From the IMG/VR virus record IMGVR_UViG_2872158770_000004: 34,669 bases of DNA; one strand, written 5' to 3'. The stretch comes from a virus (lineage: Duplodnaviria; Heunggongvirae; Uroviricota; Caudoviricetes). Of this stretch, positions 2,721 to 10,158 are shown in pieces. How positions within the stretch are numbered: the stretch's first letter is position 1; every line of letters starts with the position of its first letter. The notes beneath the pieces are model-generated. The model was not told the DNA's origin, did no database searches, and saw only the letters and a program-made list of their open reading frames with translations. Both the position numbers and the translations under genes were made by a program.

Positions 2721-2895
2721 CGCATCACCTCTGGCAGGCGCCAATGTTAGGCTGAAATTGACGCCCGATGTTGATTATTAATAATCAGCTATGAAGTTTT
2801 AATTTAGACTGGCCCCCTGAATCTCCAGACAACCAGTATCACTTAAATAAGTGATAGTCTTAATACTAGTTTTTAGACTAGTCATTGGAGTACAG

Positions 2896-3261
2896 ATGAT
2901 TGATGTCTTAGGGCCGGAGAAACGCAGACGGCGTACCACACAGGAAAAGATCGCAATTGTTCAGCAGAGCTTTGAACCGGGGATGACGGTCTCCCTCGTT
3001 GCCCGGCAACATGGTGTAGCAGCCAGCCAGTTATTTCTCTGGCGTAAGCAATACCAGGAAGGAAGTCTTACTGCTGTCGCCGCCGGAGAACAGGTTGTTC
3101 CTGCCTCTGAACTTGCTGCCGCCATGAAGCAGATTAAAGAACTCCAGCGCCTGCTCGGCAAGAAAACGATGGAAAATGAACTCCTCAAAGAAGCCGTTGA
3201 ATATGGACGGGCAAAAAAGTGGATAGCGCACGCGCCCTTATTGCCCGGGGATGGGGAGTAA
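2896..3261 (+). CDS. insC: IS2 InsC (OrfA)
   Basis: [29 protein letters not shown]...; start ATG at 2896 with GGAG upstream, inside track ORF 2851..3261. Confidence 0.9.
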
Positions 3262-4124
3262 GCTTAGTCAGCCGTTGTCTCCGGGTGTCGCGTGCGCAGT
3301 TGCACGTCATTCTCAGACGAACCGATGACTGGATGGATGGCCGCCGCAGTCGTCACACTGATGATACGGATGTGCTTCTCCGTATACACCATGTTATCGG
3401 AGAGCTGCCCACGTATGGTTATCGTCGGGTATGGGCGCTGCTTCGCAGACAGGCAGAACTTGATGGTATGCCTGCGATCAATGCCAAACGTGTTTACCGG
3501 ATCATGCGCCAGAATGCGCTGTTGCTTGAGCGAAAACCTGCTGTACCGCCATCGAAACGGGCACATACAGGCAGAGTGGCCGTGAAAGAAAGCAATCAGC
3601 GATGGTGCTCTGACGGGTTCGAGTTCTGCTGTGATAACGGAGAGAGACTGCGTGTCACGTTCGCGCTGGACTGCTGTGATCGTGAGGCACTGCACTGGGC
3701 GGTGACTACCGGCGGCTTCAACAGTGAAACAGTACAGGACGTCATGCTGGGAGCGGTGGAACGCCGCTTCGGCAACGATCTTCCGTCGTCTCCAGTGGAG
3801 TGGCTGACGGATAATGGTTCATGCTACCGGGCTAATGAAACACGCCAGTTCGCCCGGATGTTGGGACTTGAACCGAAGAACACGGCGGTGCGGAGTCCGG
3901 AGAGTAACGGAATAGCAGAGAGCTTCGTGAAAACGATAAAGCGTGACTACATCAGTATCATGCCCAAACCAGACGGGTTAACGGCAGCAAAGAACCTTGC
4001 AGAGGCGTTCGAGCATTATAACGAATGGCATCCGCATAGTGCGCTGGGTTATCGCTCGCCACGGGAATATCTGCGGCAGCGGGCTTGTAATGGGTTAAGT
4101 GATAACAGATGTCTGGAAATATAG
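3219..4124 (+). CDS. insD: IS2 InsD (OrfB, DDE transposase; normally made as an InsCD frameshift fusion)
   Basis: 301-aa ORF from the track, overlapping insC in the -1 frame. Confidence 0.9.
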
Positions 4125-4155
4125 GGGCAAATCCATAATTTGAATACAATGCAAT

Positions 4156-4394: not shown

Positions 4395-5492
4395 TTACAC
4401 CGGAATATTCTCATCGTATCCTGCTTGTTGCGTTTCGTTTTGTGTTTGTGGATCCGGGAATGCATATTCAACGCCTTCCAGTTCAATCCATAGTGCATTA
4501 CGACCAGCTTTGATTGTCGGCCAGTCCATACCTTTGATTCTTTCCCATGAGCGGGAGGTGAATGTTTTTTCCAGCAAATCAGCTTTTGCGCGTTTGGCGT
4601 CGTTACTGGTGCCCCCATGGTGCTTGTTGAACAACTCGATAATTTCATCAAGTGCGATTTCTTTTGCACGCTTTTCTTTTAGCCATGTCGGTGTACCGTC
4701 GTTGGCAAATAATTCACTGTTATCCCGTGAGGTATCGATGCCGAGGTGTTCACCTCCCAGGTTAAGAAACTCGATATGAGGAAGAAAGTTTTTAAATGTT
4801 GGGTTTGAAAATACCTGTCCATCAATACGGGTGGAGCGATCTTTTAGTATTCTGGCGGTGCGCCACACCTGACCGGTTTCTATGTTCATTTGCTTCTCCA
4901 TCTGGATCAGGATGGAGGGTTCATAACCGGTTTCTGTTTCTGCTTTCATTTTTATACCGGTTTTTGCCAACTGGCGTTTGCCATCATCACCTTCGAAAAA
5001 GTCATACTCATATCCTGCACGCCCGCACATAATAATGTGCGCCTGACTGTTAACAAATCGATCGGTAAAGCGTCGCCACTCCTGTTTGAGCCACGCCCAG
5101 TCTGAAAATTCCAGTCCTCGTTTACGGTTTCGGCGTCTGGCATACTCGTCGCATAATCCGGTCCAGAAGTGACTGATGGAGTCGATGATCATTACGGAAC
5201 CGCTGCTTTCCGCTTCATTAATGGCTTCAAGCAGATCAACAAACGAGCGGGTTTTTGCCGTAAATAATTCGATATTTTCCGCATCAAAGCGGGGTTTAAC
5301 CCAGTCAGAGCCTGTTTCTGTGTCCAGAAACATTACCGGGCGGTTACCAGCTTCAATTCCCCGTTGCCGCATAAGCATTACCAGACCAATAGCCAGTTCG
5401 CTTGCTGTGTAGGTTTTGCCGTCGCCAGCAAACCCCATAATTCCTGCTTTTAGATAGGCCTGTGTGTTTATTGCTCGTTGAAAAAGCGCCAT
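4395..5492 (-). CDS. RecA-superfamily P-loop ATPase (possibly Sak4/AAA_24-like) with a C-terminal extension of about 190 aa
   Basis: 365 aa; Walker A GFAGDGKT near the N-terminus, Walker B-like VMIIDSISHF; GGAGG 10 nt upstream of the ATG. Family assignment is from motifs only. Confidence 0.6.
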   Translation of the reverse strand: MALFQRAINTQAYLKAGIMGFAGDGKTYTASELAIGLVMLMRQRGIEAGNRPVMFLDTETGSDWVKPRFDAENIELFTAKTRSFVDLLEAINEAESSGSVMIIDSISHFWTGLCDEYARRRNRKRGLEFSDWAWLKQEWRRFTDRFVNSQAHIIMCGRAGYEYDFFEGDDGKRQLAKTGIKMKAETETGYEPSILIQMEKQMNIETGQVWRTARILKDRSTRIDGQVFSNPTFKNFLPHIEFLNLGGEHLGIDTSRDNSELFANDGTPTWLKEKRAKEIALDEIIELFNKHHGGTSNDAKRAKADLLEKTFTSRSWERIKGMDWPTIKAGRNALWIELEGVEYAFPDPQTQNETQQAGYDENIPV

Positions 5493-5497
5493 AGATT

Positions 5498-5794
5498 TTA
5501 GTCCTCCAAATCAATATCAACCTGGTGGTGGGCAATGGTTTCAGCCATGTACCGGATGTGTTCTGCCATGCGCTCCTGAAACTCAACATCATCATCAAAT
5601 GCGTGGCTGATTGCCTGTTTATTGGCACCGTGGCGTTGCAAATGGTCGATGCAGAGCGATTCAAACAGGTGCTGAGGCAGACCTTTTTCCAGGTCGTCCG
5701 CCAGTTCCGTTTCTTTTTCTTCACGAACGATCTGCTGGTAGTGGCGAGCCCATGCCATTTCTTCAATACGATCAAAAATCGGGTAAGCGCTCAT
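5498..5794 (-). CDS. Hypothetical acidic phage protein (about 98 aa)
   Basis: Track ORF 5498..5797; ends 5 nt upstream of the ATPase start, same strand. Confidence 0.5.
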
Positions 5795-5956
5795 CACTGG
5801 TCACTCCAAAATTTTCAAGCTTGTTGGCAATCATCATTGCGATGTCAGGGATTGCAGGCGCATAGGCTATGCACGCAGGATTCGCACATAAACCGTAAAC
5901 CGCCGCAATCAACACCTGTTTTTTCCAGTTGAGTTCATCTTCGCCAGTTTCATTAT
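5772..5956 (-). pseudogene. 3' fragment of an unknown gene; its 5' part is lost at the IS600 copy B junction
   Basis: Track ORF 5772..6005(-) begins inside the IS600 terminus ([16 protein letters not shown] is IS-encoded); only about 61 codons are host sequence. Confidence 0.45.
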
Positions 5957-6020
5957 TGAGGTAGCCTGAGTTTAACGGACACTCCTTCCTGAAATAGAAT
6001 GGCATCAGAAGGAGCTAATA

Positions 6021-6323
6021 ATGAGCAGAAAAACCCAACGTTACTCTAAAGAGTTCAAAGCCGAAGCTGTCAGAACGGTTCCTGAAAATCAACTTTCGAT
6101 CAGTGAAGGCGCTTCCCGATTATCTCTTCCTGAAGGCACTTTAGGACAATGGGTTACCGCCGCCAGAAAAGGGCTCGGTACTCCTGGTTCCCGCACGGTG
6201 GCTGAACTGGAATCTGAAATTCTGCAACTGCGTAAGGCGTTAAATGAAGCTCGCCTTGAGCGAGATATATTAAAAAAAGCAACAGCGTATTTTGCACAGG
6301 AGTCGCTGAAAAATACGCGTTAA
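6021..6323 (+). CDS. IS600 OrfA
   Basis: Identical 100-aa product (TVPENQ variant). Confidence 0.93.
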   Translation: MSRKTQRYSKEFKAEAVRTVPENQLSISEGASRLSLPEGTLGQWVTAARKGLGTPGSRTVAELESEILQLRKALNEARLERDILKKATAYFAQESLKNTR

Positions 6324-6358
6324 TCGAACAATGGCGACAACAATTTCCCATTGAAGCG

Positions 6359-7177
6359 ATGTGTCAGGTATTTGGTGTATCCAGGAGCGGTTATTACAAC
6401 TGGGTACAGCATGAACCCTCAGACAGAAAACAAAGTGATGAGCGGCTAAAACTGGAGATTAAGGTGGCACATATCCGCACTCGCGAAACATATGGAACCC
6501 GGCGGCTCCAGACGGAGCTGGCAGAGAATGGCATCATCGTTGGTCGTGACCGACTGGCACGTCTTCGTAAGGAGCTAAGGCTACGCTGTAAGCAGAAACG
6601 CAAGTTCAGAGCGACTACGAACTCGAACCACAATCTGCCAGTTGCGCCAAATCTGCTGAACCAGACGTTCGCTCCTACAGCACCAAATCAGGTCTGGGTG
6701 GCGGACCTGACGTATGTTGCCACACAGGAGGGATGGTTGTACCTCGCTGGCATCAAAGATGTTTATACGTGCGAAATTGTCGGCTACGCCATGGGAGAGC
6801 GCATGACAAAAGAGCTGACAGGTAAAGCCCTGTTTATGGCGCTCAGGAGCCAGCGCCCACCTGCCGGGCTAATCCACCACTCTGATCGAGGTTCACAGTA
6901 CTGCGCATACGATTACCGGGTCATACAGGAGCAGTCTGGTCTGAAAACATCAATGTCGCGTAAAGGTAACTGTTACGACAACGCTCCGATGGAAAGCTTC
7001 TGGGGAACGCTGAAAAATGAGAGCCTGAGCCACTATCGTTTTAATAACCGGGATGAAGCCATCTCAGTAATACGGGAATACATTGAGATTTTCTACAATC
7101 GTCAGCGTCGTCACTCTCGTCTGGGGAATATATCCCCGGCAGCCTTCAGGGAAAAATATCATCAGATGGCTGCTTAA
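6359..7177 (+). CDS. IS600 transposase OrfB
   Basis: 272-aa ORF in the -1 frame relative to orfA. Confidence 0.93.
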   Translation: MCQVFGVSRSGYYNWVQHEPSDRKQSDERLKLEIKVAHIRTRETYGTRRLQTELAENGIIVGRDRLARLRKELRLRCKQKRKFRATTNSNHNLPVAPNLLNQTFAPTAPNQVWVADLTYVATQEGWLYLAGIKDVYTCEIVGYAMGERMTKELTGKALFMALRSQRPPAGLIHHSDRGSQYCAYDYRVIQEQSGLKTSMSRKGNCYDNAPMESFWGTLKNESLSHYRFNNRDEAISVIREYIEIFYNRQRRHSRLGNISPAAFREKYHQMAA

Positions 7178-7220
7178 AAAAAGAACAAATGGTAGTGTCC
7201 GCTATTGCCAGTACACCTCA

Positions 7221-8762
7221 GTTCGCTCCTCCGGTTCGCTGTTCTGGTGCTGTTTATCTTCAGTCTGTCGCACTTTATTTTCCGTTTTTTTGACTTCATT
7301 TGAGGAGATATGATGACCGGGAATCCATTTCGAATCATTCGGGTCGCTAATCCCTTCAACAAATTCTCCGCGAGAGGCAGCCAGTAATTTGTCTGCATCG
7401 ACAGGATTTTTGGGCGGAATGTTTTTCCGGGCTTCATGGAGTTCTGTCCGCAGTTTCTGATATTTCGCATCAACAGCATTTACCTGTGACTGAGCATCCA
7501 GCGGCTGCGTGTCCTGATGATGTTCAGTTGCATCCGGTTCCACTGTTTCAGCCGTTGCCTGTTCATCTGCCATTGCGCAAGATGGTTGCGGTTTTTCTTC
7601 ATCATCCTGTTTTCCTTCTTCTGTTACACGCTGCGGCATCGGGGCAGAGGAGCGACCGCAGGCAATATCCACGATTTCCGGATCAGGGTTGGCATGATCG
7701 GTTTCAGTCAGTACCTTGTTCAGATATTCAGTGACGTGCGCGGGGATGACCTCGATCCCAATTGGTGCTTCTTTTACGGACGCAACCACGATGGCGCGGG
7801 AATAATCCAGCCCGCCAGGCATGGTGATGAATTTGTCGCGGAAAACAGAAAAGGGCGGTTTATTTTCAGCGATAATTTCCTCAATGCGTTTAGCGTGTGC
7901 CGGATGAAGGTTATAGATGTCCAGATCCATTGAACGGGCCAGTACGCCAGTGGCTACGTCGCGCGCCAGTGACGTCAGATCGTGTACGAAACCTTCGCCG
8001 CGATCGGTGAGGTTTCCGCCGCCAGCATTAGCACCGGAAGCCGTGCGAGTGATGTGTGAAACACGATTACCCTTCATCCACTCTTTTGTCAGCAGTCCTC
8101 GATCGGTGTAGTCAGCGTTCAGGTATGCTTCGAAAAAAGCAGTTATCAGTCCCAGGCTTGAATTACCAGGATTAGGGAAAACTTTGTCAGTGTCACGAAC
8201 CAGTTTGTGGAGATCGCGAATTTCCAGCGGGTCGAGCAGGCTGGTTTTGTGGGAAACAGCCAGGGCAGTAACAGCCGGTAGTTCTTCAGCCCGAGCAATG
8301 TGTAATGCCTGGAGTCCGTCGCGTGAAACGTGCGTTACCGGTTTTTCGCTGCCGTGTTGAGCAAGCCAGCGAATGGGCAGTTCCTGACCGGAAACTGGCA
8401 GGAGCATGTTCTCCTCAATTTCTGTCATGTCTTCGCCGTTGACGTTGGTATTGTCAGTGCTGGCTGGTTTGTCCTGAACAGAGGGAGAAGATGCGATAAA
8501 TACCATTGTGATGCCATCTTCCCCGCCTTTTTCGTAACGGTTGCAGAATTCCGTATCAAACACGCCTTCTGGTGGGAGGTCACCAACAACGGGCAAATTG
8601 ACGCGAACAGGTTTTTTAAAGTCATCTTCATCGTAGCCAGCATCGTCAATCGCAACAGCACCACGGGAGATGGCAATGGATAATTTTTTCGCTTCAGCCC
8701 AGTAAAAACCGCCTTTAATACCGAGGCGTTTTCTTACTTTGTCATTTTTTGCTTCGTAATAC
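7221..8762 (-). pseudogene. Large phage protein fragment in the recE position of Rac-like prophages; N-terminus interrupted by IS600 C, C-terminus lost at IS600 B
   Basis: Track ORF 7202..8794(-), 530 aa, both ends read from IS termini. After removing IS600 C plus one TAC, the frame continues upstream to an ATG at about 10058 ([21 protein letters not shown]...) with a GAGG RBS. Long acidic low-complexity region. The RecE-like label is from synteny and composition only. Confidence 0.5.
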
Positions 8763-8805
8763 TGAGGTGTACTGGCAATAGCGGACACTACCATTTGTTC
8801 TTTTT

Positions 8806-9624
8806 TTAAGCAGCCATCTGATGATATTTTTCCCTGAAGGCTGCCGGGGAGATATTCCCCAGACGAGAGTGACGACGCTGACGATTGTAGAAAATCTCAA
8901 TGTATTCCCGTATTACTGAGATGGCTTCATCCCGGTTATTAAAACGATAGTGGCTCAGGCTCTCATTTTTCAGCGTTCCCCAGAAGCTTTCCATCGGAGC
9001 GTTGTCGTAACAGTTACCTTTACGCGACATTGATGTTTTCAGACCAGACTGCTCCTGTATGACCCGGTAATCGTATGCGCAGTACTGTGAACCTCGATCA
9101 GAGTGGTGGATTAGCCCGGCAGGTGGGCGCTGGCTCCTGAGCGCCATAAACAGGGCTTTACCTGTCAGCTCTTTTGTCATGCGCTCTCCCATGGCGTAGC
9201 CGACAATTTCGCACGTATAAACATCTTTGATGCCAGCGAGGTACAACCATCCCTCCTGTGTGGCAACATACGTCAGGTCCGCCACCCAGACCTGATTTGG
9301 TGCTGTAGGAGCGAACGTCTGGTTCAGCAGATTTGGCGCAACTGGCAGATTGTGGTTCGAGTTCGTAGTCGCTCTGAACTTGCGTTTCTGCTTACAGCGT
9401 AGCCTTAGCTCCTTACGAAGACGTGCCAGTCGGTCACGACCAACGATGATGCCATTCTCTGCCAGCTCCGTCTGGAGCCGCCGGGTTCCATATGTTTCGC
9501 GAGTGCGGATATGTGCCACCTTAATCTCCAGTTTTAGCCGCTCATCACTTTGTTTTCTGTCTGAGGGTTCATGCTGTACCCAGTTGTAATAACCGCTCCT
9601 GGATACACCAAATACCTGACACAT
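8806..9624 (-). CDS. IS600 transposase OrfB
   Basis: 272-aa ORF, identical family. Confidence 0.93.
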
Positions 9625-9659
9625 CGCTTCAATGGGAAATTGTTGTCGCCATTGTTCGA

Positions 9660-9962
9660 TTAACGCGTATTTTTCAGCGACTCCTGTGCAAAATACGCTG
9701 TTGCTTTTTTTAATATATCTCGCTCAAGGCGAGCTTCATTTAACGCCTTACGCAGTTGCAGAATTTCAGATTCCAGTTCAGCCACCGTGCGGGAACCAGG
9801 AGTACCGAGCCCTTTTCTGGCGGCGGTAACCCATTGTCCTAAAGTGCCTTCAGGAAGAGATAATCGGGAAGCGCCTTCACTGATCGAAAGTTGATTTTCA
9901 GGAACCGTTCTGACAGCTTCGGCTTTGAACTCTTTAGAGTAACGTTGGGTTTTTCTGCTCAT
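9660..9962 (-). CDS. IS600 OrfA
   Basis: 100-aa ORF. Confidence 0.93.
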   Translation of the reverse strand: MSRKTQRYSKEFKAEAVRTVPENQLSISEGASRLSLPEGTLGQWVTAARKGLGTPGSRTVAELESEILQLRKALNEARLERDILKKATAYFAQESLKNTR

Positions 9963-10128
9963 TATTAGCTCCTTCTGATGCCATTCTATTTCAGGAAGGA
10001 GTGTCCGTTAAACTCAGGCTACCTCATACAGTGGGTAAACTTGTTTATCGGTGCTCATTGTTTTTTAACCTCAACTCAGATTAAAATTACTGCGAGTGAT
10101 GAATAAATGTCCCAGGTTCTTCACTCAG

Positions 10129-10158
10129 GCCTGCACAGTGTGCAGGCTTTCTTTTTTT
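10129..10158 (+). terminator. GC-rich hairpin (GCCTGCAC-AGT-GTGCAGGC) followed by a T-run; terminator-like on the plus strand
   Basis: Perfect 8-bp stem, 3-nt loop, then TTTCTTTTTTT. Sits between the stop of gene 10158..10433(-) and the upstream end of the recE-position gene; which transcript it serves is unclear. Confidence 0.4.

Follow-up and report, generated by a model that had tools for sequence, protein, structure and literature searches.

An IS600 copy without a target-site duplication and the 185 bp missing beside it in a prophage remnant of Shigella sonnei

The 34.7-kb window, by which we mean the whole stretch of 34,669 nucleotides analysed here (IMG/VR record IMGVR_UViG_2872158770_000004), contains six IS600 copies, three IS1, one IS2, one IS630 and one IS911-like element. 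One of the IS600 copies, copy B (5957..7220, + strand), is intact and 1264 bp long but has no target-site duplication, being flanked by TAT on one side and GTT on the other. The question raised by this locus is what happened at copy B and how much of the neighbouring recombination region was lost with the duplication. The original prediction was an IS-mediated rearrangement that had removed sequence, probably with the nuclease domain and a recT-like gene.

Judged by sequence comparison, the window is a decayed Rac-site (ttcA/intR) prophage remnant of Shigella sonnei. It is 100% identical to S. sonnei CP026802.1 over 8234 nt, and S. sonnei 53G (HE616528.1), which has the same ttcA-adjacent locus, differs from it only by the IS2 at 2805-4135. 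The Rac-type site with intR and xisR is present, and positions 1-2805, once IS600 copy A is removed, are 100% identical to the ttcA-adjacent intR/xisR region of CFSAN029787 and VL40. The IS2 (1331 bp, 5-bp duplication TAATT) lies between xis and the DUF1187 gene and is recent and strain-variable, since it is present in CP026802.1 and absent from S. sonnei 53G. Six copies of the module without IS600 at the position of B, all from E. coli or enteroinvasive E. coli (EIEC) genomes, made up the comparison set. These are the ttcA prophage of EIEC CFSAN029787 (L004/L006) and the yfaA prophage of the same strain (L005), the yebY prophages of FDAARGOS_943 (L002) and RMDEC465 (L003), the ttcA prophage of VL40 (L007), and the ttcA prophage of FDAARGOS_944 (L001), which has an unrelated ISEc60 at the B position. 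The EIEC genomes have two or three prophages each with the same module.

Copy B among the IS600 copies of the window

All six copies of the 1264-bp element have the ends TGAGGTAGCCTG...CAGTACACCTCA. The termini of copy B are imperfect inverted repeats (left end TGAGGTAGCCTGAG..., reverse complement of the right end TGAGGTGTACTGGC...) and show the TG...CA ends. Two reading frames are found within it, orfA (6021..6323, +; 100 aa, with an HTH_Tnp_1 domain assigned by Pfam on the identical gene of S. sonnei 53G) and orfB (6359..7177, +; 272 aa, with an rve integrase-core DDE domain, recorded as rve/rve_3 on the identical 53G gene). Copy B differs from the other full-length IS600 copies of the window at 1-3 positions and is 99.7% identical over 1264 nt to an element of E. 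coli VL40 annotated by PGAP as 'IS3-like element IS600 family transposase'. From its size, termini, orfA/orfB and near identity to annotated IS600, copy B is assigned to IS600 of the IS3 family. The missing duplication is no argument against this identity because it is accounted for by the 185-bp deletion described below. Only six positions vary among the copies, one of them a change at 1176 that is private to B, and these are too few to read a mosaic structure from the element itself.

The listing of the flanks of all copies bears out what had been claimed for the duplications. Copies A (492-1755, -), C (8763..10026, -), D (17767-19030, -) and E (25912-28427, -) have perfect 3-bp duplications, which read TTG/TTG, GTA/GTA, TAG/TAG and CAC/CAC in the orientation of the element, or CAA, TAC, CTA and GTG on the + strand. 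At copy F (31384-32647, +), which is flanked by GAA and GCC, the duplication is absent as it is at B. Since a 3-bp match is expected by chance only once in 64 for each copy, the four duplications are real, and B and F, where none is present, truly depart from the pattern. The flanks of B and F match neither each other nor any other IS600 junction in the window. Copies B and F were also considered as recombination partners and rejected, as TAT/GTT and GAA/GCC share nothing; moreover, as direct repeats, B and F would lose one of the two copies on recombining and would not exchange flanks.

The left flank of copy F (28428-31383) ends in a terminase large-subunit gene (L019 22858). The right flank (32648-32986) is part of a tail-fibre gene and corresponds, in collinear orientation, to 4676986-4677324 of CFSAN029787, within its ttcA prophage. 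From these two flanking genes, ~20 kb of head and tail morphogenesis genes is missing at F. Copy E is interrupted by an IS3-family element at 26729-27977 (1249 bp, ends TGAAGTGGCACACTG...TTGTTGACCACTTCA, 3-bp duplication TAC) with 94% identity to an element of FDAARGOS_944 annotated as ISEc52 family; its ends resemble those of IS911. An IS630-type element (12583-13735, 1153 bp) has TA/TA flanks and encodes a 343-aa DDE_3 transposase. The IS1 copies at 19170-19937 and 32990-33757 have 9-10-bp duplications. At the IS1 at 22686-23453 no clear 9-bp duplication is seen, ~135 bp of the VL40 prophage (L007 20694-20828) are absent, and identity to VL40 falls from 99.3% to 93.6%; either a deletion or a mosaic boundary could account for this.

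The sequence missing beside copy B

Relatives of the prophage that have no IS600 here were used to size the loss. In four IS-free copies at three sites (ttcA, yebY and yfaA; L002, L003, L004 and L005) the flanks of B are separated by 185 bp, in VL40 by 186 bp, and in FDAARGOS_944 by 185 bp plus ISEc60; their order and orientation are identical in all six. At the deletion point (5956..7221), 185 bp of the relatives (L004 7866-8050, L002 5816-6000) are absent from the window. In none of the relatives are the flanks contiguous, so the reading that sequence was lost here survives. Decay of the duplication by point mutation was ruled out as an explanation, as the 185 bp are gone.

The gene affected is the one in the recE position, which we call the RecE-N-like ORF. 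In the ttcA prophage of CFSAN029787 it is a single ORF of 646 aa (L004 7681-9621, -) within a module that spans L004 6304-9621 and corresponds to 4395-5956 and 7221-10058 of the window. In the window it is found in three pieces, all on the - strand: the 5' end (10027..10058, MSTDKQVYPL), the central part between IS600 B and C (7221..8762, codons ~10-524), and a 3' remnant (5772..5956) of the last 61 codons and the stop. Copy C is a simple insertion after codon 10; once it and one TAC are taken out, MSTDKQVYPLYYEAK... reads in frame into the 7221-8762 segment, and the ORF so joined differs from that of L004 by 15 amino acids over 523 residues. It had been claimed that B lies between the 3' fragment of one gene and the truncated end of the recE-position gene. 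Both are indeed gene fragments, but the reconstruction assigns them to the same 646-aa ORF, from which ~62 codons (a peptide ending in SDQHNDSN) have been lost with a shift of frame. The central part now belongs to a 530-aa hybrid ORF (7202-8794, -) that starts in IS600 C and ends in B, and the 3' remnant to a 77-aa hybrid ORF (5772-6005) that starts inside IS600 and runs out of the left end of B. The 530-aa ORF is found exactly in 53G and many S. sonnei assemblies, and the 77-aa ORF likewise in 53G and other complete and draft assemblies. All S. sonnei assemblies read in which the junction ORFs occur share the deletion at B.

Residues 48-591 of the 646-aa ORF align to residues 40-585 of K-12 RecE with 77% identity and are followed by an unrelated 55-aa tail. 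The 3' remnant in the window therefore holds the last six RecE-homologous codons and this tail, which overlaps the start of gam. The N-terminal Exonuc_VIII region (PF06630) is present in the RecE-N-like ORF (E = 1e-37). By Pfam, the DUF3799/PD-(D/E)XK nuclease domain is absent from both the IS-free 646-aa ORF and the window fragment, while K-12 RecE, which has 866 aa and carries DUF3799 at residues ~615-850, matches both regions. Likewise, recT, and with it a recE-recT pair, is missing both from the window and from the IS-free relatives of the module. The idea that the event at B removed a nuclease domain and recT has to be given up, since the six IS-free relatives are already without both and have a gap of just 185-186 bp here. 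The architecture without nuclease domain and recT is thus native to the module, older than the IS600 event and unrelated to it.

Downstream of the RecE-N-like ORF are gam, an AAA_24 ATPase gene, the DUF1187 gene, xis and int. The gam gene (5498..5797, -) encodes a protein identical to that of an IS-free relative. It matches PF06064 over residues 2-98 (profile positions 1-97 of 98, E = 8e-56) and phrog_259, and is predicted to be a full-length member of the lambda Gam (RecBCD inhibitor) family. The ATPase gene (4395..5492, -; 365 aa) occupies the position of recT in Rac. Its product matches AAA_24 (E = 7.5e-14), and its best PHROG is phrog_1366 of unknown function (1e-79); a match to the Sak4-like phrog_124 is weak (9e-9) and covers residues 9-167 only, the AAA_24 core of Sak4 being ~230 aa. 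Only 10 among 5,426 complete E. coli genomes contain the segment that joins RecE-N to Gam and AAA_24, but a genome may have it in as many as three prophages, which occupy different att sites, and the module is spread over several prophages per genome within a small EIEC/Shigella group. The RecE N-terminal region is dispensable for the nuclease activity of RecE. As a free-standing 646-aa protein, translationally coupled to Gam and AAA_24, it might conceivably belong to an uncharacterised recombination or anti-RecBCD module, although we consider this doubtful.

The deletion at B has little functional consequence. IS600 C breaks the gene as well, and IS2 and IS600 A cut the early-left operon.

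Local deletion and its rivals

The 185-bp loss is very probably explained by the history of a normal, intact IS600 that lost its duplication after insertion, through a deletion beside one of its ends. Such a deletion would have removed the 185 bp of target DNA together with one copy of the original duplication. Two routes could have led to it. IS600 may have inserted with a normal 3-bp duplication, after which its transposase would have driven an adjacent deletion of the IS3-family kind from one IS end. Alternatively, a second IS600 may have inserted 185 bp away in the same orientation, and homologous recombination between the two copies would have removed the DNA between them. Either route would leave one IS flanked by one side of each original site. 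Both are well documented for IS3-family elements (PMC11708052, PMC4173774). Adjacent deletion or recombination between nearby direct IS600 copies is the most likely mechanism; we infer the route itself. With 100-nt probes across both junctions, neither B junction was found in any of the 5,426 complete E. coli genomes, and so no intermediate came to light there, which would have IS600 at the TAT site (TAT-IS600-TATTGCTATC) or at the GTT site (GGGTGTT-IS600-GTTC) with an intact duplication. Exact-pattern scans returned 0 matches, both for the real B junctions (the left one in viral_contigs and genome_contigs, the right one in metagenome_contigs) and for two hypothetical ancestral junctions in viral_contigs. 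The junction scans are uninformative and the collections without S. sonnei, as the real B junctions, which serve as positive controls, were also unmatched.

The larger event that had been expected, a deletion of kilobases of the recombination module with the RecE nuclease domain and a recT-like gene, draws on the comparison with K-12 Rac, where the recE nuclease domain and then recT lie between the RecE N-terminal region and xis/int, and both are missing from the window. It is extremely unlikely in view of the relatives without IS600 at this position, all six of which have only the short gap between the flanks. They are already without the nuclease domain and recT, their RecE homology ends at residue 585, and their ORF continues into the 55-aa tail, gam and the AAA_24 gene, a pair that is also found in phage phiES15. 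A one-step event is a different matter, in that its product would be identical in sequence to that of the two-step deletion. In such an event the IS600 ends would have attacked sites 185 bp apart, or the element would have entered a pre-existing break, and the duplication would never have existed. Duplication-free insertion at deletions or duplications has been proposed by Ngan et al. for IS5 and IS481, but all 14 IS150 deletion cases in the same work were traced to an earlier simple insertion (PMC11708052), and four of the six IS600 copies in the window have the canonical 3-bp duplication. We therefore regard a one-step origin as unlikely.

Copy B could also be a hybrid formed by IS600 recombination between two co-resident prophages, through inversion or translocation, in which case the 185 bp would survive at a reciprocal junction elsewhere. 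The module is present in two or three prophages per EIEC genome, and an IS600-mediated inversion is seen at this locus in S. sonnei strains. The identities of the flanks point the same way at first sight. On the left, a single mismatch over 1821 nt separates the window from the ttcA prophage of CFSAN029787 (99.95% identity), while the whole 1.5-kb right flank is closer to the yfaA prophage of that strain (99.4%) than to its ttcA prophage (96.3%). The difference, however, is not anchored at the IS. The first 410 nt to the right of B have 2 mismatches to the ttcA prophage, and the divergence is concentrated in a patch at 7631-8423, with ~55 mismatches to the ttcA prophage and near identity to the yfaA prophage. 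This patch looks like gene conversion or mosaicism between co-resident prophages, and since it begins ~400 nt from B, B is no mosaic breakpoint. High identity to ttcA-site prophages resumes at 13736-22685, and there is no partner junction within the window. From intR through to the tail-fibre gene, the window follows one ttcA prophage collinearly and in one orientation, which leaves no large inversion with an end at B. An origin from two prophages is accordingly very unlikely, and from this collinear structure the event at B is best described as a local deletion.

By these comparisons the deletion at B is local, collinear and confined to a single gene that was already without a nuclease domain. 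Of the rearrangement originally proposed, the IS-mediated event and a loss of sequence still stand, but in all six relatives its extent comes to an adjacent deletion of 185 bp and not to kilobases. That the module has neither the RecE nuclease domain nor recT is an older difference, shared with the IS-free EIEC prophages, and not damage by IS600. A missing IS duplication need not mean a large rearrangement; here it means a 185-bp loss in a gene that was inactivated anyway, and its significance lies mainly in correct annotation.

IS600 activity at the locus and comparison with known systems

In another S. sonnei lineage, CP060117.1 (2928465-2936698; this entry stands for two further similar places), the left junction of D is joined to the right junction of B, and the right junction of C to the left junction of B. 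Compared with window 5957-19170, this place has 7221-8762 in inverted orientation and is without 10027-17766. The segment 7221-8762 also has a 157-bp internal deletion (8186-8342) in this genome. The arrangement fits an inversion by recombination between B and D, which would have been followed by deletion of 10027-17766 between direct copies. These hybrid junctions among B, C and D show that recombination between IS600 copies occurs at the locus, which adds to the IS-driven prophage decay known in S. sonnei. The stretch from B to C was also considered as a transposed composite element and rejected, given that the outer flanks are TAT and TAC and that the 1542-bp segment is collinear with the relatives.

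In draft S. sonnei contigs (L009, L024-L029), IS600 is joined to other neighbours, for example a DnaB-like helicase gene beside copy C, and some of these contigs repeat the gam/IS600 junction several times. Artefacts of assembly could explain them, or else the module may exist in further copies with gam cut by IS600 after 40 codons. They were set aside as structural evidence for their odd repeated concatenations around IS600.

Among known systems, the Rac prophage of K-12 is like the window in its ttcA integration site, intR and xisR, and in RecE residues 40-585, with 77% identity. The two differ in that Rac has the RecE nuclease domain, recT, ralR and rcbA, whereas the window has the gam, AAA_24 ATPase and DUF1187 genes instead; this difference in gene content is already present in the IS-free relatives. 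The inducible Cronobacter phage phiES15 also has gam and an AAA_24 ATPase gene next to each other upstream of xis/int, and its ATPase is 84% identical to that of the window. The gam-AAA_24 pair is thus a genuine phage module. In phiES15 it is kil that precedes gam, whereas in the window gam is preceded by the RecE-N-like ORF. An origin of the 55-aa tail from Kil was considered and rejected, as the tail has no similarity to the Kil of phiES15.

The closest parallel to copy B itself is IS150, another IS3-family element. Of 68 IS150 events in three populations of the E. coli long-term evolution experiment, 14 were accompanied by deletions of 14 bp-48.9 kb; all 14 were without a duplication, and in each case a simple insertion had come first at that position (PMC11708052). 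The rbs deletions have been credited to recombination between two IS150 copies (PMC4173774). As at B, the IS ends in the IS150 adjacent deletions are intact, the duplication is missing and the IS lies exactly at the edge of the deletion, and 185 bp falls within their range. The cases differ in that the element at B is IS600, and that B records an ancient event, now fixed in a natural lineage, where an insertion-first intermediate is unobservable. Five IS types, IS600 among them, have expanded in every Shigella species (Hawkey et al. 2020, PMC7373316), in which IS elements interrupt genes and deletions arise between homologous copies (PMC7373316). The case of copy B is a textbook outcome of this expansion, of an already known kind and present in public annotated genomes. 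Compared with the IS-driven pseudogenisation and prophage decay of Shigella, it is one specific instance with no substantive difference.
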